Assembly (NCBI GenBank): GCA_964370935.1
Contig: CAYJKI010000002.1
Span: 522,545 to 586,544, forward strand
DNA: 64,000 nt
Source of the DNA: an uncultured Ignavibacteria bacterium
Lineage (GTDB): Bacteria; Zixibacteria; MSB-5A5; CAIYYT01
Direction of reading: 5' to 3'
This document shows positions 21,440 through 29,042 of this stretch, in pieces. How positions within the stretch are numbered: the first letter of the stretch is position 1; the number at the start of each line of letters is the position of its first letter. Both the position numbers and the translations under genes were made by a program. A model generated the notes under the pieces. The model was not told the DNA's origin, did no database searches, and was given only the letters and a program-made list of their open reading frames with translations.

Positions 21440-22792
21440 GTGAGCGATCTGTTTGAAGATGATGTTCCGCTGAAAAGAAAACCCAATGCGCCACTTGCCG
21501 AGCGGATGCGTCCGGAGCGACTCGACGAGTTTGTCGGTCAACACGATATCATGGACGAAGGGAAGCCGTTGCGAGCGCTGCTCGATAAGGGCAAGATTCA
21601 CTCGGCGATCTTCTGGGGACCGCCCGGGTCCGGCAAGACAACGTTAGCCTACCTGATCTCCAAGACTCTGAAATTGAAGTTCATTTTCTTCTCGGCCGTG
21701 ACATCGGGAATTAAAGAGATCAAAGAGGTCATGGCCGAAGCCGAAAAGACGGAAGCGCTTTATGGACAGCGGACAGTGCTGTTCGTTGACGAAATACATC
21801 GATTTAATAAGGGGCAGCAGGATGCTTTCCTGCCGTACGTTGAATCGGGTAAGATCGTTCTGTTGGGTGCGACAACGGAAAATCCGTCATTCGAGGTAGT
21901 CGGCGCACTATTGTCACGTCTCAAAGTGTATCTGCTTAAGCCGCTCGATGCGGAGGATCTCGACAGGATCATATCGCGCGCTCTGGCAGACAAGGACAAA
22001 GGTCTGGGAGCCAAGAATGTAAAACTAAGCGCAGACGCGAGATCATACATCATTCAGGTAAGTGGTGGCGATGCGAGGCGAGCGCTGACATTGCTCGATT
22101 TAGCTTGCGAGGCCGATCCTGGTTGGGAGACGGGCTCTGCGGACATCACTTTGGAACGTATCACTGAAGTCCAGCAGAAGAAAGTTTTGCTGTATGACAA
22201 GTCGGGCGAAGAGCATTTCAATTTAATATCGGCACTGCACAAATCGATGCGCGATTCGGACCCCGATGCTTCACTGTACTGGTTGGCACGAATGCTCGCC
22301 GGCGGTGAAGATCCTTTGTACATTGCCAGACGAGTAGTGCGATTTGCCGTCGAGGATGTTGGCTTGGCTGATCCAGGCGCGATGGCCGTTGCCTTGAACG
22401 CCAAAGAGATCTACCACTTTCTCGGAACACCAGAAGGTGAGTTGGCGATTGCTGAAGCTGTAGTATATCTCGCAGCAGCGCCCAAGTCGAATCGGATCTA
22501 CAGAGCGTACCAGAAGGTGATGAAGACCGTGGAAGAAGAGCCCGCTTATGAGGTACCTTATCACATCCGCAATGCCGTGACCGGGATGATGAAAGGTTTC
22601 GGTTATGGCAAAGGCTACCAGTATGCGCACGATGTTGACAATGCCATCACCGGCCAGTCGGATCTCCCGGACCAGTTGAAAACGCGGGTGTTTTATGAGC
22701 CTTCGGAGTACGGGATTGAGAAGAAGATCAAGGAGCGGCTTGAATACTGGGAAGAAATCAGGAAACAGGCGCGTGAACGGGGCAAGAAATAA
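21440..22792 (+). CDS. rarA: Replication-associated recombination protein A (AAA+ ATPase RarA/MgsA)
   Basis: Walker A GPPGSGKTTLA, Walker B VLFVDEIHRFNK, and the C-terminal MgsA-specific helical domain. Confidence 0.85.
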   Translation: MSDLFEDDVPLKRKPNAPLAERMRPERLDEFVGQHDIMDEGKPLRALLDKGKIHSAIFWGPPGSGKTTLAYLISKTLKLKFIFFSAVTSGIKEIKEVMAEAEKTEALYGQRTVLFVDEIHRFNKGQQDAFLPYVESGKIVLLGATTENPSFEVVGALLSRLKVYLLKPLDAEDLDRIISRALADKDKGLGAKNVKLSADARSYIIQVSGGDARRALTLLDLACEADPGWETGSADITLERITEVQQKKVLLYDKSGEEHFNLISALHKSMRDSDPDASLYWLARMLAGGEDPLYIARRVVRFAVEDVGLADPGAMAVALNAKEIYHFLGTPEGELAIAEAVVYLAAAPKSNRIYRAYQKVMKTVEEEPAYEVPYHIRNAVTGMMKGFGYGKGYQYAHDVDNAITGQSDLPDQLKTRVFYEPSEYGIEKKIKERLEYWEEIRKQARERGKK

Positions 22793-22856: not shown

Positions 22857-24137
22857 ATGGACGTTATGAAGACGACTCGATTTCTGATATTATCACTCAT
22901 TGGTATGACGCTGTTTTGTTCGCAATCTTTTGCCAACAAGATCTTGATCTATATGGATCGCGAGCAGACCAATCACCTCAAGGCTTACGGAGTAGCTTTC
23001 TGGACACTCAAGCAGAATCGCCCGGTTGAGTGGCTGCTCAATTATCGCGGCGGTTCATTCTTGATGGACGAATTTGAGGGCATCAAGAACTTGTGTGCAT
23101 TGCGCGGCGTCGCGGCGACCACCATCGACGCCGGCGATGAAGCCCTGATCCGCGCTACTATCGAAGAGAACAACATGGAGTCCGTACTGCTGGAGAAAGC
23201 ACCGGCGGTGGCGATTTATAGTCCGCCGAACAACGAGCCATGGGATGATGCGGTGACACTGGCGCTGCAATACGCCGAAATCGAGTACAAGACTCTTTGG
23301 GATCCCGAAGTCCTGGATGGCAAACTCGAGGAATACGACTGGCTGCATCTGCATCACGAAGATTTCACCGGACAATACGGGCGATTCTATAATTCCTTCC
23401 GCAATACACTCTGGTATCAACAGGAGGTAGCGGCGAATGAGCAGACGGCGAGAACGCTCGGCTACCGCAAGGTTTCAGAAATGAAGCGCGACGTAGTACT
23501 CGCAGTGGAAGATTTCGTCGCCCGCGGCGGTTTCATGTTCTCGATGTGTTCGGCGCCCGAGACATTTGATATCATGCTGGCCGCCCAGAACACTGATATC
23601 GTCCCGAAGGAATTCGACGGTGATGCCATCGATCCGAATTTTGCCAGCAAATTGGACTTTAGCAGATGTATGGCGTTCGAGAACTTCACATTATCAGTCA
23701 ATCCACTTGAGTACAAGCACTCGGACATTGATACATATCCGGATCGGCAGCAATTTGCGCCGGTTCCGGATTTGGACTATTTCCAATTATTCGATTTTTC
23801 CGCAAAGCTTGACCCGGTGCCGACGATGTTGGTACAAGATCACGTCGGTATGGTCAAGGGATTCATGGGGCAGTCCACCGCATTTCGAAAATCGCTGGTC
23901 AAGAAATTCGTAACGATACTTGCGGAAGTGGATGGACAGGATGAAGCTCGTTATATTCACGGCAACTATGGCAAGGGAACATTTACGTTTCTGGGCGGTC
24001 ATGACCCGGAAGACTATCAACACATGGTGGGAGACCCACCGACACAGTTGGAGCTATACAAAGATTCGCCCGGCTACCGCTTGATTCTGAACAACATCTT
24101 ATTTCCGGCGGCGAAAAAGAAAGAACGCAAGACATAA
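22857..24137 (+). CDS. Secreted hypothetical protein (426 aa)
   Basis: Signal peptide MKTTRFLILSLIGMTLFCSQSFA. No confidently recognised domain. Confidence 0.4.
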   Translation: MDVMKTTRFLILSLIGMTLFCSQSFANKILIYMDREQTNHLKAYGVAFWTLKQNRPVEWLLNYRGGSFLMDEFEGIKNLCALRGVAATTIDAGDEALIRATIEENNMESVLLEKAPAVAIYSPPNNEPWDDAVTLALQYAEIEYKTLWDPEVLDGKLEEYDWLHLHHEDFTGQYGRFYNSFRNTLWYQQEVAANEQTARTLGYRKVSEMKRDVVLAVEDFVARGGFMFSMCSAPETFDIMLAAQNTDIVPKEFDGDAIDPNFASKLDFSRCMAFENFTLSVNPLEYKHSDIDTYPDRQQFAPVPDLDYFQLFDFSAKLDPVPTMLVQDHVGMVKGFMGQSTAFRKSLVKKFVTILAEVDGQDEARYIHGNYGKGTFTFLGGHDPEDYQHMVGDPPTQLELYKDSPGYRLILNNILFPAAKKKERKT

Positions 24138-24371
24138 GTCGCTGTCAGTGTCAAAGATAGTGATAGTGAATAATTTCTCTTGATTTTCGTAATCGCTTTC
24201 ATTAAATAACAGTATCTTCACTGATCTGAACAGGTCGGATAGACGGCTAAATACCCTTCATCGTTTAGAATGTCGTCAAAGCGTTAACGCAGATTTGCCC
24301 GAGAATCTGGTAGTCCGTCTGTTGATCAAGATAGAAGAAACACAGCACATTACAACAGCTTGGAGGATTAG

Positions 24372-25088
24372 GTGTCCGGTGCGAGCGATATACTCATCGC
24401 AAATATAAAGGAAAAAGGTTCGGAGGTTACCGCCTTCCTGGAGAAGGAAGGAATCAACATCCGCTATACGGCATTGCGTCTAATCGACTATTTGATTGCC
24501 GGAAGAATCGCAGTCATTCGCCGGACAGTACCGGCGTTCATGGAAGATCTGTCGAATAAGTTAGTTTATCGTACGGCGCCGGAATTCAAGCGGACCTTTC
24601 CGGATCCGCTGTACATTGTCGAGGGCGACCGACCGGCATCAACGATATCCTCAACGACCCACGGCCGTTCCGGTGTCACCTATCTGACTTTTGTCAATCG
24701 AATTCCGATCATTTTCTCCAGCACTCCCGAAGAGACCGGGAAATATATAGCGCTCATGATGAAACAAGTGGCATTTGCCTCGACGGCGGAAACCATGTCA
24801 AATGACAACGAAGAAACATCCGAAGAGTCGACAGTTGAGATTGATGCTGAAGTTCAAATGCAGGTGCTTTCGGCGATACCCGGAGTGAAGGAAGAAAATG
24901 CCAAGGCACTTATCGCCAAATTCGGTTCCTTGCGCGCTATCGCAGAAGCTGACGAAGCGGAAATCGCCAAAGTCAAAGGTCTCGGCGGCAAGAGAGCTAA
25001 GGCCATAGCACAGGCTTTTAATGCGTCACTTCTTGAGAGCCAGCCGCGGGTTGAAACAAAGTCTTCCAAGTCATCCGTTACCCGATAG
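24372..25088 (+). CDS. ERCC4 (XPF/Mus81)-like nuclease-fold protein with a C-terminal tandem helix-hairpin-helix (HhH2). The catalytic motif appears degenerate.
   Basis: IDYLIAGRIAVIRRTVPAFMEDL aligns to the archaeal XPF core GDY..(x)..AVERKSxxDLxxSI, but with G->I, E->I, K->R. The C-terminus IPGVKEENAKALIAKFGSLRAIAEADEAEIAKVKGLGGKRAKAI is a classic (HhH)2. Confidence 0.5.
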   Translation: MSGASDILIANIKEKGSEVTAFLEKEGINIRYTALRLIDYLIAGRIAVIRRTVPAFMEDLSNKLVYRTAPEFKRTFPDPLYIVEGDRPASTISSTTHGRSGVTYLTFVNRIPIIFSSTPEETGKYIALMMKQVAFASTAETMSNDNEETSEESTVEIDAEVQMQVLSAIPGVKEENAKALIAKFGSLRAIAEADEAEIAKVKGLGGKRAKAIAQAFNASLLESQPRVETKSSKSSVTR

Positions 25089-25155: not shown

Positions 25156-27306
25156 GTGACCGATAAACCGCAGATCGATAGAATCTTCGTTGCGCTGGCC
25201 TTAGCGCTGCCGTTCTGCCTCTACCTCCTCACTCTTTGTAGAGGAATCCCGGTCGGTGATGCACCGGAATTGGCATTGGCAGCGGCAAGACTTCAGATTG
25301 CCCATCCACCCGGCTATCCACTGCTGACGATAGTCGGCTACATTTGGAGCCAGGCATTTTCCTTTTTGCGCCCGATTGTCACACTCAATTTGCTTAGCGC
25401 CGTATTTGCAGCCGCGTCATGCGGAGCTTTCTATCTTCTCGCGTCTCGACTTGTCGTGGTGCAGGGAATGACTGGGCGCGTTCTCATGTTGGCCATCGCT
25501 GTTTCCATTGCGGCCGGCCGGACCCTGTGGTCGACGGCAACGAATTTCGAGGTCTATTCCCTGGCGGCACTGTTCACTGTGCTGATTCTCCTACTGCTCA
25601 TTCGATTGATGCAAACCGGCGACCGGCGATTCTTCTTGCTTGCGACGTACCTGCTGGGGCTGTCCCTCTGCAATCATCTTTCATTGCTTGCTTTGCTGCC
25701 GGCTGTGATCATCGCCGCAATCGGCATACGATCAATTTTGGGTTGGCGGCATCTGCTTGCCGGCATCGTGTTGGGAGTCGTTCCGGGAACTCTTTACGGT
25801 TACCTGCTTATTCGTTCGCGATTTGATCTGGTGATGAGTTGGTATAATCCGCAACGGTGGACCGGTTTCAAGCAACAGGTGTTTGCGGAGACCTATCAGC
25901 GCTTTGTCGCCTCACCGAATTTTGCGGACTTAATGCCCTATATGCATCGGCTCCAGGAATTATTCGGTGGCGAATTGGTGCTGCCGTTCACATTGTTGGC
26001 CCTGGGTGGACTAATTGTCCAATGGCGCAGGAATCCAAAAATTGCGTTGATGCTCGGCTCTGTAGCCGTAACCAACTGCATACTCAATTTCAATTACACC
26101 ATCAGCGACATCGCGCCTTATTTCTTGCCGACAATCACTGTGCTGTTGATCTGGATATTCGAGTTATTGAATTGGATGATCAGCAAGTCTCGAGCGACGA
26201 CGGGCGTTGCTGTGACAGTTTCAATTGCTGTCGCAGCGACTTCGATTGTTGGCAACTATGACCGATCTGACCTTTCTACTCGCACTAAGTCCGAAACCTA
26301 TGCGAAGGATCTGTTCAAAAATGTCCCGACGGGAGGAATGCTCTTCTGCGGAAGCGACAATTCGATGTTCCCGGCATTATATCTGCGCTATGTTGAGAAC
26401 TACCGACCTGACAGCGAGGTATTTGGTCACTTGCCGACGATGAGTCATCTGCAACGTGAGCTGGGTTACCAATTCGACGGTGATTGGACGAATTTTCCGG
26501 ACTTGCTCAAACACGCCATTAAATCGGGTTCGCGGCCAGTCGTGATGGCACGCGAACTGATGAATTTCGACAACAACTTCCCGCGCATAGTGGACAACTT
26601 GATAGCTCGAGATTTAGTATATGTTGCCGATTCAGCAATGCAATTGCCTTTGCAGGACTATCGCACACAAATCGACGACATTCCAAATCTGTATGATCCT
26701 AAGGAAGCACTGATGTATGCTGTCTATCAACTGGCGGCGGCGGAGTCAGCCGAAGATGCGAGCGACACTGAAAGCGAGCGGTACTACAACCGCGCGATCA
26801 GAATAGTCAACGCAATGAAGGAACCTTCACTATCGAGCGCCCTGGCCGCCTACTTTGTTGATCGCAATCAACATCGTTACGCAATAGCGGTGATTGAACC
26901 TGCGCTGGCATTGTCGTCACTGCGGCTGAAAGAGCGACTTCAATTGCTCGGAGGACTCGGCACCGCGCAAATGCGACTACAAAACAGGGCGGGCGCAAGG
27001 GCTGTTTTCGAGAAGATGCTGACTCTGGAAGCCGATAATACTGAAGCGCAATTTCAAATCATGACGCTGGATGCTTCGGAAGCAATGAATGGCGGAAATC
27101 TGGAGGCCGCAATTTCGGTGTATGAGCGAATGGCGCAATTGGCACCCGATCAACACCAGGTGACTATGCAGCTGGCAGGACTCTACATCAGGACAGGCAA
27201 CCTCAAGTCAGCCCGGTTGGCTCTGCAGCGTTGCATCGACGCCGATTACCGGCGCGATGAGGCCACCACTTTACTCGGGCAATTGGATTCGACGGGGCTC
27301 AAGTAG
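25156..27306 (+). CDS. DUF2723-family polytopic membrane protein (GT-C/PMT-like putative glycosyltransferase) with C-terminal TPR repeats
   Basis: N-terminal signature PVGDAPELALAAARLQIAHPPGYPL, about eleven TM helices, then a soluble TPR-like C-terminal ~200 aa. Confidence 0.7.
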   Translation: MTDKPQIDRIFVALALALPFCLYLLTLCRGIPVGDAPELALAAARLQIAHPPGYPLLTIVGYIWSQAFSFLRPIVTLNLLSAVFAAASCGAFYLLASRLVVVQGMTGRVLMLAIAVSIAAGRTLWSTATNFEVYSLAALFTVLILLLLIRLMQTGDRRFFLLATYLLGLSLCNHLSLLALLPAVIIAAIGIRSILGWRHLLAGIVLGVVPGTLYGYLLIRSRFDLVMSWYNPQRWTGFKQQVFAETYQRFVASPNFADLMPYMHRLQELFGGELVLPFTLLALGGLIVQWRRNPKIALMLGSVAVTNCILNFNYTISDIAPYFLPTITVLLIWIFELLNWMISKSRATTGVAVTVSIAVAATSIVGNYDRSDLSTRTKSETYAKDLFKNVPTGGMLFCGSDNSMFPALYLRYVENYRPDSEVFGHLPTMSHLQRELGYQFDGDWTNFPDLLKHAIKSGSRPVVMARELMNFDNNFPRIVDNLIARDLVYVADSAMQLPLQDYRTQIDDIPNLYDPKEALMYAVYQLAAAESAEDASDTESERYYNRAIRIVNAMKEPSLSSALAAYFVDRNQHRYAIAVIEPALALSSLRLKERLQLLGGLGTAQMRLQNRAGARAVFEKMLTLEADNTEAQFQIMTLDASEAMNGGNLEAAISVYERMAQLAPDQHQVTMQLAGLYIRTGNLKSARLALQRCIDADYRRDEATTLLGQLDSTGLK

Positions 27307-27318
27307 CCGGTTGCCACG

Positions 27319-28629
27319 CTACGCCACGGAGAGCGTAACGTCCTTGGTTGGGACGGCAACCAAACGATCACCGTCAAGGCTCGTTAGATCAACCGAGCAG
27401 ATTTGATTCTGTAGATTTCGTTCGGACTTCAAGTGAACCCGCATGTAGTTTTCCGTATACCCGGTCCAATAGTAATCTTCCTGCGTTTCAAATAGCACAT
27501 TGACAGTCGTGCCAAGATGCGCGGAGTAATATGCCCGACGTTTGCGCTCGGAGAGCTCAATTAAATTGCGAGTGCGTGCCTTCTTGACTTGATGTGGTAC
27601 TTTGGGTTTCAGATTCCATGAGGGCGTACCCGGACGATCGGAATAGGTGAACACGTGGAAATAGAAAAAGGGGAGATCTGTCAGAACGTCGCGAGTATTT
27701 TGAAATTCGGCCTCGCCCTCGGTGGGATAACCGACCATGATATCTGTACCGAGCCCTATGTCGGGAATCAATTTGGCGGACCACTCAATGAACTTGGCGA
27801 ACGGTTTGATGGTATGTTTGCGCGACATCGAAGAGAGAATCTTGTCATCTCCGCTTTGCAGTGGCACGTGCAAGTAGTGGCACAACTTAGCCGACGAGGC
27901 CATATAGCGCACCAATTCCGCCCCGATAGTGGTCGGTTCGATTGAACTGATGCGGATGCGCGACAGGCCTTCAATCAGCTCGAGACGCTCGATGACTTTG
28001 AGCAGGTTTTTTCCGTCATTCTTGTAGGTGCCAATGTTAACACCGGTGAGGACGAGTTCGCGGTGTCCGGCAGCGACCAGAGCTTCGGCTTCGCGAATAA
28101 TGTCGTTGAAATTCCGGCTGCGAGCACGGCCTCGGACTGTTGGGATAATGCAGAACGAGCAAAAATAATTGCAGCCATCCTGGATTTTCAGGTTAGCTCG
28201 TGTATTGAACGTGTACAGGCCGCTGGTGTCAATGGTGAATTCTTTCTCGGGCAACTTCGGCGAGTGGATTATTTGCGGCGCGGAGTTCTTATTGAGACCA
28301 TTGAGAAAGTCGCCTACACGCAGCTTGTGTTCATTGCCAATGATCAGATCGACGCCGCGAATGGCGCTGATGGCATCGATGCCGTTTTGCGCGTAACAGC
28401 CGACGACTGCAACGAAGGTCGTAGGATTGACACGCAGCGCTGCCCGCACCGCCTGTCGGCATTTGGAATCGGCTTGTTCGGTAACAGTGCAGGTGTTAAT
28501 AACCGTCACATCTGCAGGCTCGCCGAATTCGACGATATCGAATCCGCGGGCAGCCAGACTGTTGGCAATAATCGCGGTCTCGGCCTGATTGAGCCGACAA
28601 CCGAGTGTATGCAGCGAAGCCTTGGGCAA
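27319..28629 (-). CDS. mtaB: MiaB-family radical-SAM methylthiotransferase (MtaB-like tRNA t6A37 methylthiotransferase)
   Basis: UPF0004 domain (LHTLGCRLNQAE). Radical SAM CNYFCSFCIIP. C-terminal TRAM domain. The track ORF extends to 28815, but the homologous region begins about 28629 (TTG) with ...KASLHTLGC. Confidence 0.8.
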   Translation of the reverse strand: MPKASLHTLGCRLNQAETAIIANSLAARGFDIVEFGEPADVTVINTCTVTEQADSKCRQAVRAALRVNPTTFVAVVGCYAQNGIDAISAIRGVDLIIGNEHKLRVGDFLNGLNKNSAPQIIHSPKLPEKEFTIDTSGLYTFNTRANLKIQDGCNYFCSFCIIPTVRGRARSRNFNDIIREAEALVAAGHRELVLTGVNIGTYKNDGKNLLKVIERLELIEGLSRIRISSIEPTTIGAELVRYMASSAKLCHYLHVPLQSGDDKILSSMSRKHTIKPFAKFIEWSAKLIPDIGLGTDIMVGYPTEGEAEFQNTRDVLTDLPFFYFHVFTYSDRPGTPSWNLKPKVPHQVKKARTRNLIELSERKRRAYYSAHLGTTVNVLFETQEDYYWTGYTENYMRVHLKSERNLQNQICSVDLTSLDGDRLVAVPTKDVTLSVA

Positions 28630-28736
28630 GTTCCTGCTCCAGAAATGATCCGTTTTGACGCCGAATTGCCGGCGCCGCTGACAGGGAGCAGAATATAGAC
28701 TCGAGCGAGGAATGTCAAGCGGGAGACAGGCTGAAC

Positions 28737-29042
28737 TTATGTCCTGTGAGGTTTGAAGGCAAACTCGCGGATACTCATCGACTCGGGCACCGGATAGACT
28801 CCAGCGCCGGCGCAAAGCGGGCAGGGGCTCTTGTCGGACTGGCGAATTTCGATCATGCCGGATCCTTTACAGGCGTAACAGTCCTTTCCGGAAGCATCCT
28901 GCCCCTTGCCAAAGCAGTACATGCAGACGTGGGCATGATTCGGTGTCAAGCAGCGGTTGTCAACCCAGCCACGCCCGAGGCATTCCGGACAGGTTTTCGG
29001 CGGCCCTTCACTTGACGGTGGTAGGTGCTTCTCGGTTGACAT
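28737..29042 (-). CDS. Small DnaJ-type zinc-finger protein with four CxxCxGxG repeats and no J domain
   Basis: CPECLGRG, CMYCFGKG, CYACKGSG and CPLCAGAG are the four DnaJ central-domain repeats. The ORF overlaps the 3' end of the hydrogenase maturation protease gene. Confidence 0.5.
   Translation of the reverse strand: MSTEKHLPPSSEGPPKTCPECLGRGWVDNRCLTPNHAHVCMYCFGKGQDASGKDCYACKGSGMIEIRQSDKSPCPLCAGAGVYPVPESMSIREFAFKPHRT

Follow-up and report, generated by a model that had tools for sequence, protein, structure and literature searches.

The 64-kb stretch of bacterial DNA analysed here, hereafter the window, encodes an ERCC4-(HhH)2 protein of 238 residues that has lost the catalytic signature of the XPF/MUS81 nucleases and is nevertheless maintained by purifying selection in a lineage-restricted family. 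By analogy with related systems, there is about an even chance that it binds duplex or branched DNA without cutting it, probably as a homodimer, and so corresponds in bacteria to the pseudonuclease modules of eukaryotes. The ERCC4-fold domain would have been remodelled so that its active site can no longer bind the catalytic metal, and an acidic linker would join it to an intact (HhH)2 domain for DNA binding and dimerisation. Self-dimerisation seems most likely by analogy with archaeal short XPF and with FANCM-FAAP24, ERCC1, and Zip2-Spo16, and the HhH hairpins, together with the basic ERCC4-like domain, could bind duplex or branched DNA without cutting it. The cellular role might then be that of a sensor, protector, or recruiter at DNA structures.

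The reading frame at 24372-25088 on the forward strand is genuine. A Shine–Dalgarno sequence, GGAGG, lies 6 nt 5' of its GTG start, homologues start at the identical position with an ATG or TTG codon, and the 238-codon reading is the longest possible because a stop codon lies just 5' of it. The frame and the parts of the protein that it encodes are the following:

24372..25088, + strand: ERCC4-(HhH)2 pseudonuclease-like reading frame, 238 aa, GTG start, stop codon at 25086-25088
24390..24776, + strand: ERCC4-like (restriction-endonuclease-fold) domain, residues about 7-135, pI 9.3
24777..24851, + strand: acidic linker, residues 136-160, pI 4.05, poorly conserved and of low model confidence
24852..25025, + strand: HhH region, with a canonical second hairpin, G203-L-G205-x-K207, and a first hairpin P170-G-V-K
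25026..25085, + strand: disordered C-terminal tail rich in Ser, Thr, and Lys, ending in [ILV]-x-R in the subfamily of the window

Pfam assigns residues 17-129 to ERCC4 (PF02732; E=2e-10, 41.2 bits against a cut-off of 24) and residues 165-217 to HHH_5 and HHH_2. In a sequence search of the PDB, all of the 14 top matches were XPF/MUS81-family chains, the best being Aeropyrum pernix XPF (2bgw, E=3e-13, over the full length), together with the Pyrococcus Hef nuclease domain (1j22, E=2e-10), human XPF (6e-7), the Hef (HhH)2 domain (2e-5), and FANCM (4e-3), whereas ERCC1 (E=0.07) and FAAP24 (E=0.9) were matched over the HhH region only. An earlier note on this DNA had taken the protein for a bacterial relative of short XPF, composed of an ERCC4-like core and tandem hairpins, and Pfam, the PDB sequence matches, and Foldseek bear this out; the N-terminal domain does not belong to an unrelated fold. 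The same note likened the protein to an ERCC1-type partner, and here the comparison fails, as the nearest proteins by sequence and fold are Hef, archaeal XPF, and FANCM/FAAP24, while ERCC1 aligns through its hairpins only, at the E value given above. Confidence in the AF2 model is moderate (pLDDT 69).

At a finer level of classification, both the archaeal Xpf equivalog of NCBIfam (NF040956, 57.3 bits against a cut-off of 300) and the Hef equivalog (NF010337, 100.9 bits against 610, over profile positions 574-775 of 781 only) remain below threshold. Since the catalytic feature of XPF/Hef and the NCBIfam cut-offs both fail, and there is no specific sequence relationship to ERCC1 or FAAP24, the protein is assigned to the XPF/MUS81 (ERCC4) superfamily only; its ancestry lies in the short XPF/Hef nuclease-HhH2 unit. 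The (HhH)2 region, with a pI of 9.6, has P170, L180, F184, A193, L198, G205, K207, and A209 in common with catalytic relatives, and its hydrophobic residues L180, F184, and L198 are conserved. Moreover, the family of the window has acquired four invariant basic residues, R51, K63, R67, and R74, and features associated with DNA binding are thus preserved.

The following features mark what has become of the nuclease site:

24402..24413, + strand: degenerate first motif, N11-I-K-E14 (D-x-R-E in catalytic relatives)
24483..24491, + strand: I38-D39-Y40, equivalent of GDY, with the Asp retained
24516..24536, + strand: I49-R50-R51-T-V-P-A55, equivalent of ERKx3D, with the metal-binding Glu changed to Ile, the catalytic Lys to Arg, and the last Asp to Ala
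24567..24572, + strand: Y66-R67, of which R67 is invariant across the degenerate clade and not conserved in catalytic relatives

When 175 proteins from the word-indexed and profile searches were aligned to the family profile, 133 of them were relatives with a canonical site, and in these D11 is found in 86%, E14 in 89%, D39, E49, K51, and D55 in 100%, S59 in 97%, R64 in 94%, and Q68 in 95%. The family of the window carries N, E, D, I/V, R, A/E/S, D, M/L, and T at these nine positions, seven of which are thus replaced, with only E14 and D39 kept. The signature GDXnERKX3D with the DxRE that precedes it is therefore absent and reads N-I-K-E / I-D-Y / I-R-R-x3-A. The equivalent of E62 of A. pernix XPF (ApXPF) is I49, which is Ile or Val in 29 of the 29 family members, and that of K64 is R51, which is invariant in the family. 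The alignments to ApXPF and Hef contain no gaps across residues 9-85, motif region included, and on the sequences compared the loss of the motif is no alignment accident. An inactivated motif, as proposed in the earlier note, stands for the Glu, the Lys, and the last Asp, and not for the first Asp (D39) and E14, which are retained; 'EDL' at 58-60, proposed there as the site of the last Asp, gives way to A55 as the true equivalent. The loss of the signature as such is both clade-wide and conserved.

ApXPF coordinates its Mg ion through the D52 and E62 side chains, whereas FANCM, with CDXnERRX3E, binds no metal and has no activity, and the corresponding motif of FAAP24 reads PDXnLYVX3D (PMC3905867). 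The window protein joins the FAAP24-type loss, with a hydrophobic residue in place of the Glu, to the FANCM-type loss, in which Lys becomes Arg, and the loss of the Glu ligand predicts that Mg- or Mn-dependent structure-specific cleavage would not occur.

The word-indexed search returned 26 relatives and a profile search of 1.84 billion representatives returned 3214 at E<=1e-3, with scores that drop steeply past the family (385, 355, 232, 178, 160 ... 120 bits). The next tier (P0029-P0037, P0055, and P0070) consists of short proteins in which the motifs are degenerate as well, and a second search seeded with this tier revealed a sister family of ~34 sequences, among which one bears the name 'FCB group bacterium', with the motif [ST]-x-R-L / G-E-F / [KRM]-Y-[MLY]. 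From P0038 on, the signature is intact in almost all matches, which include ~750-aa Hef-like proteins and ~220-aa short XPFs. In a tree built by neighbour joining only, in which long-branch attraction is possible, all of the degenerate short proteins form one clade beside the catalytic short forms, and the sole derived residue common to the whole clade is R67, within a Y/F-R motif. This degenerate short ERCC4-(HhH)2 clade is found in metagenome genomes of Zixibacteria and the FCB group.

The replacements seen in the two families bear on whether the protein could still be a nuclease, with a relocated site composed of E14, D39, R51, and the family-specific acidic residues E24, E26, E71, and D78. 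Catalytic residues can migrate within the PD-(D/E)XK superfamily, and in the family of the window two of the old acidic positions persist, several new invariant acidic residues have appeared, and conservation of the replaced positions (IRR) suggests a function at the old site. Nevertheless, every member has a hydrophobic Ile or Val for the Glu that ligates Mg and an Arg for the Lys, the sister family differs in its replacements (GEF and [KRM]-Y-[MLY]) and has none of the candidate acidic residues, and FANCM, whose ERR...E variant is milder, is inactive and free of metal (PMC3905867). A relocated nuclease site is thus quite doubtful, and a non-cutting protein is the reading preferred here.

Among 185,579 GTDB species, each represented by one genome, 14 carry the subfamily of the window, a count that was obtained with subfamily-specific peptide patterns and is a lower bound for the wider clade. 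All 14 loci come from MAGs, with the labels Candidatus Zixiibacteriota, 'uncultured Ignavibacteria bacterium', or 'uncultured bacterium'. Catalytic ERCC4-(HhH)2 proteins are also present in bacteria, as a short form in a Bacillota MAG (P0043) and as WP_005742657.1 of the Pseudomonas megaplasmid pMPPla107. The latter is 24% identical to the window protein and shares with it the ERCC4-(HhH)2 module, here C-terminal, but differs from it in its length of 613 aa, its N-terminal P-loop domain, and its intact DMRE/GDY/ERKx3D site. Since bacteria possess ERCC4 proteins with an intact site, degeneracy is a property of the Zixibacteria/FCB clade. The supposed scarcity of the ERCC4 family in bacteria is thereby only partly upheld: the narrow distribution of the window family agrees with it, as does a review according to which XPF has no direct orthologues in bacteria (PMC6320978), but catalytic members do occur. 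Our literature search found no publication on dead ERCC4 proteins of bacteria or Zixibacteria or on the family of the window.

A place in a defence system or on a mobile element was considered and rejected. PADLOC gave no anti-phage defence match for the ERCC4-like protein, PHROGs matches cover the HhH region only, the phage search found none, and the only two plasmid matches are distant, lie on megaplasmids, and have intact motifs.

Among known systems, the archaeal short XPFs (Aeropyrum pernix XPF, 2bgw/2bhn, and Sulfolobus XPF) belong to the same length class of about 220-240 aa, have the same order of ERCC4 and (HhH)2, and provide the best full-length match in both sequence and Foldseek searches. 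Archaeal short XPFs are homodimers in which the (HhH)2 domain serves dimerisation and DNA binding, and ApXPF, with its intact DxRE/GDY/ERKx3D site, cleaves 3' flaps and has a PCNA-binding motif at its C-terminus (PMC6320978), whereas the window protein is devoid of the site and has a different tail, in which no conserved PIP-like or clamp-binding motif was found, in a bacterial host. Pyrococcus furiosus Hef (1j22 and 1x2i) carries an N-terminal helicase and an active nuclease site, whereas the maximal reading frame of the window protein is 238 aa. The loss of the catalytic motif is shared with the ERCC1, EME1, and FAAP24 partners, and ERCC1, the partner of XPF, likewise combines a central ERCC4-like domain that is non-catalytic with a canonical (HhH)2 C-terminal to it. 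FANCM-FAAP24 (4bxo, 4m6w, and 9hjo) differs as a eukaryotic obligate heterodimer on a translocase; its sequence similarity to the window protein is weak (E=0.004), and the degeneration is therefore independent. Zip2-Spo16 and SHOC1-SPO16 form a eukaryotic, meiosis-specific XPF-ERCC1-like heterodimer with no detectable sequence similarity to the window protein. By analogy, the protein would work most like the dead ERCC4-(HhH)2 modules of FANCM/FAAP24, ERCC1, and Zip2-Spo16. Binding of DNA by the ERCC4-like domain is nevertheless not guaranteed, because the dead nuclease domains of FANCM-FAAP24 do not themselves bind DNA (PMC3905867).

The state of assembly of the protein depends on whether a second ERCC4 protein accompanies it. 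No second ERCC4-like sequence was found in six-frame translations of the window, nor in six frames of 29 related loci with flanks of about 10 kb (493 kb in total). In prokaryotes, the genes of partner subunits usually lie next to each other, and since neither the window nor the related loci hold a second ERCC4 gene, a homodimer is favoured over a heterodimer and a role as an ERCC1-type partner appears unsupported by the sequences. A non-catalytic subunit like ERCC1, EME1, or FAAP24, with a catalytic ERCC4 partner encoded elsewhere in the genome, would agree with the fact that all eukaryotic dead ERCC4 proteins are heterodimer partners (PMC3905867 and PMC6320978), and catalytic ERCC4-(HhH)2 proteins that could provide such a partner are known in bacteria, as P0043 and the Pseudomonas megaplasmid proteins illustrate. 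However, the window protein is XPF/Hef-like by sequence and not ERCC1-like, and together with the empty flanks this makes the heterodimer an unlikely arrangement. A protein that would dimerise with itself remains the preferred reading.

The gene lies in the following surroundings:

21440..22792, + strand: rarA/mgsA, encoding an AAA+ replication-associated recombination protein, a frequent partner of hyp426
22857..24137, + strand: hyp426, encoding a conserved exported protein of 426 aa with no Pfam match, the 5' neighbour of the ERCC4-like gene
24138..24371, + strand: spacer of 234 nt between hyp426 and the ERCC4-like gene, with regulatory signals of its own
25156-27306, downstream of the ERCC4-like gene: TMEM260-like/DUF2723 membrane protein with TPR repeats
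Beyond the TMEM260-like gene, convergent: radical-SAM methylthiotransferase-like gene

All of the 21 distinct loci, which come from four subfamilies, have hyp426 immediately upstream of the ERCC4-like gene and in the same orientation, the two genes being separated by 151-362 nt. Members of the P0028, P0031, and P0033 subfamilies share 27-40% identity with the window in their ERCC4-like protein and 59-72% in hyp426. The gene rarA lies upstream in 16 loci and is absent in three with sufficient sequence (L002/L014, L020, and L029). Sampling through hyp426 yielded three lineages, a complete Zixibacteria genome of 3.5 Mb among them, in which rarA-hyp426 is present and no ERCC4-like gene was found next to the pair or within 8 kb of it. 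The stable unit is thus rarA-hyp426, and the ERCC4-like gene immediately downstream is a passenger that some lineages have and others lack. The ERCC4-like gene, which the earlier note placed next to rarA, is separated from it by hyp426, and rarA was rejected as a specific functional partner, given its absence from three lineages and the persistence of the pair where the ERCC4-like gene is missing. The TMEM260-like glycosyltransferase and TPR gene was rejected as well, as the downstream gene varies and other subfamilies have in its place an MFS transporter, an rml operon on the opposite strand, or unknown genes.

Within a subfamily the length of the spacer is constant, at 230-235 nt for that of the window and 262 nt for another. 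At about 24175-24208 lies a conserved AT-rich block, TTTCnCTTGATTTT-N17-TAAATA, which may be the ERCC4-like gene's own promoter. Further downstream, a 7-bp hairpin (24221-24227/24232-24238) has four of its seven pairs changed on both sides, with 97% of cells paired, against 24-52% when the partners are slid by 1-3 columns. An invariant CCTTCA (24255-24260) is complementary to TGGAGG of the Shine–Dalgarno region (24361-24366), a pairing that shows no covariation because both sides are invariant. The promoter-like block, the hairpin, and CCTTCA together suggest a structured leader, predicted at roughly 165 nt, that may gate translation. Scans of the window with Rfam, at the gathering threshold, and for tRNAs returned nothing.

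The sole strictly conserved neighbour, hyp426, offers no evident link to DNA. A signal peptide (...SQSFA|N) is present, and the C-terminus, FPAAKKKERKT, is invariant; searches of Pfam, NCBIfam, and PDB sequences were empty, and a fold search gave weak matches to class-I glutamine-amidotransferase-like or ThuA-like proteins. A role of the ERCC4-like protein tied to hyp426 and not to DNA repair, such as binding nucleic acid to regulate the locus, would explain why the two genes stay adjacent down to 27% identity while the outer flanks vary, and would suit a gene with a conserved promoter-like block and a structured leader of its own. Nevertheless, hyp426 has more than 8000 homologues and in the three sampled lineages does without the ERCC4-like gene, which is thus not needed; the adjacency could also be gene order inherited in one lineage that has kept rarA-hyp426 as well, and we know of no regulator that uses an ERCC4-like fold. 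Such a role is hence improbable, and DNA binding without cleavage continues to be preferred. The very common and yet unnamed hyp426 merits study, as does its conserved pairing with rarA.

Relative to close relatives, the ERCC4-like gene has a dN/dS of 0.03-0.09 (Nei–Gojobori), compared with 0.02 for rarA, 0.01-0.03 for hyp426, and 0.12 for the downstream glycosyltransferase-like gene. The same catalytic-site replacements are found in all 29 family members, down to 40% identity, and the family alignment has 45 invariant columns. The reading frame is intact in the loci examined, with the exception of L019, where both neighbouring genes are frameshifted too, which points to a sequencing error; that this is a long-read assembly is inferred from the name of the MAG (MFD) only. 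The low dN/dS and the replacements fixed across the clade therefore indicate a protein that is maintained, not a decaying gene, and a pseudogene was rejected. A functionless relic of a horizontally acquired archaeal XPF gene would fit the lost catalytic residues, the absence from several related lineages, and a divergence at depth faster than that of rarA and hyp426 (44% vs. 76-78% identity), but the selection on the gene, its intact frames, and its invariant columns make such a relic scarcely credible, and the one frameshifted copy sits among frameshifted neighbours.

To our knowledge, catalytically dead XPF/MUS81 members are known only as eukaryotic heterodimer partners. The case presented here is clean and somewhat surprising, and the function proposed for the ERCC4-like protein follows from analogy. 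It is possible, and suggested here tentatively, that the family is the first prokaryotic one of XPF-type pseudonucleases, a self-sufficient homodimeric binder of DNA junctions that would have arisen by inactivation of a short XPF inside Zixibacteria/FCB, independently of and in parallel to the origin of ERCC1, FAAP24, and Zip2, and whose locking to hyp426 would point to an undescribed pathway. The XPF/MUS81 family has been described as archaeal and eukaryotic (PMC6320978). If this proposal is true, a dead ERCC4-(HhH)2 module would be useful on its own, as an apparently single-copy bacterial gene under strong purifying selection, and would provide a simple one-gene system for asking what dead ERCC4-(HhH)2 modules recognise.

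The genes that flank the ERCC4-like gene and the segments within and before it are as follows (window coordinates).

22857-24137, + strand: hyp426, encoding a 426-aa protein
24138-24371, + strand: spacer preceding the ERCC4-like gene, with the three features that follow
about 24175-24208, + strand: conserved, promoter-like AT-rich block
24221-24227/24232-24238, + strand: hairpin, with covariation in four of its seven pairs
24255-24260, + strand: CCTTCA box, complementary to the Shine-Dalgarno sequence at 24361-24366
24777-24851, + strand: interdomain linker of the ERCC4-like protein, joining two basic domains
25026-25085, + strand: C-terminal tail of the ERCC4-like protein
25156-27306, + strand: TMEM260-like/DUF2723 membrane protein with TPR repeats at its C-terminus
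27319-28815, - strand: radical-SAM/UPF0004 methylthiotransferase-like gene, a mechanical ORF of 498 aa from TTG

The upstream neighbour, hyp426, also lies immediately 5' of the ERCC4-like gene in the fetched loci L001-L029, and likewise occurs in L024-L027; in most of the sampled loci, among them all three that lack the ERCC4-like gene, rarA accompanies it as a pair. The homologue search returned more than 8000 relatives of this very widespread exported protein, and the copies in the loci compared share 59-98% identity and an invariant C-terminus, FPAAKKKERKT. Searches against Pfam, NCBIfam and PDB sequences gave no match for hyp426, which carries the name 'asparagine synthetase B' in certain NCBI entries, and its fold bears a weak resemblance to class-I glutamine-amidotransferase-like or ThuA-like domains. 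On the downstream side, the TMEM260-like gene (dN/dS 0.12) evolves far faster than the adjoining genes, with 43-80% identity as against 75-97% for rarA in the same loci, and other genes take its place in sister lineages. The true start of the radical-SAM/UPF0004 gene is probably some 55-60 codons inside the ORF, since its homologues are called at 437-443 aa. In locus L019 (8679-11630; MAG MFD05942.bin.1.428), frameshifts split the ERCC4-like gene as well as its two neighbours, hyp426 and the TMEM260-like gene, which looks like homopolymer errors of long reads rather than gene decay.

The lineage labels of the carriers are mutually inconsistent: most family-carrying MAGs are labelled 'uncultured Ignavibacteria bacterium' (record titles of L006-L015), and proteins near-identical to theirs are elsewhere filed under Candidatus Zixiibacteriota. 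The lineage is treated here as Zixibacteria/FCB group. 'ERCC4 domain-containing' proteins are also encoded on Pseudomonas megaplasmids, including the P. fluorescens SBW25 plasmid NZ_LN713926.1 and pMPPla107 of Pseudomonas amygdali. The pMPPla107 protein, WP_005742657.1 (613 aa; L030, 1804-3645), combines an N-terminal P-loop domain with an ERCC4-(HhH)2 module whose DMRE/GDY/ERKx3D site is intact, a Hef-like arrangement in a bacterial host.

Within the ERCC4-like protein, the linker is strongly acidic (Asp/Glu at 9 of 25 residues, none basic), varies in length and sequence among homologues and is modelled with low confidence; one possible role is that of a DNA mimic within the molecule. Comparison with the homologues P0181-P0214 showed that the C-terminal tails differ by subfamily: those of the window protein's own subfamily are rich in Ser/Thr/Lys and finish in [ILV]-x-R, whereas those of the sister family, a further group of short degenerate ERCC4-(HhH)2 proteins, terminate in -A-A (e.g., GQKAA, NRAA) or in KLS/KLN. 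Such subfamily-specific tails could be docking or degradation signals. Regarding the spacer, an Rfam scan of the window matched no family; with its three features, the spacer may constitute a leader for translational control of the ERCC4-like gene.
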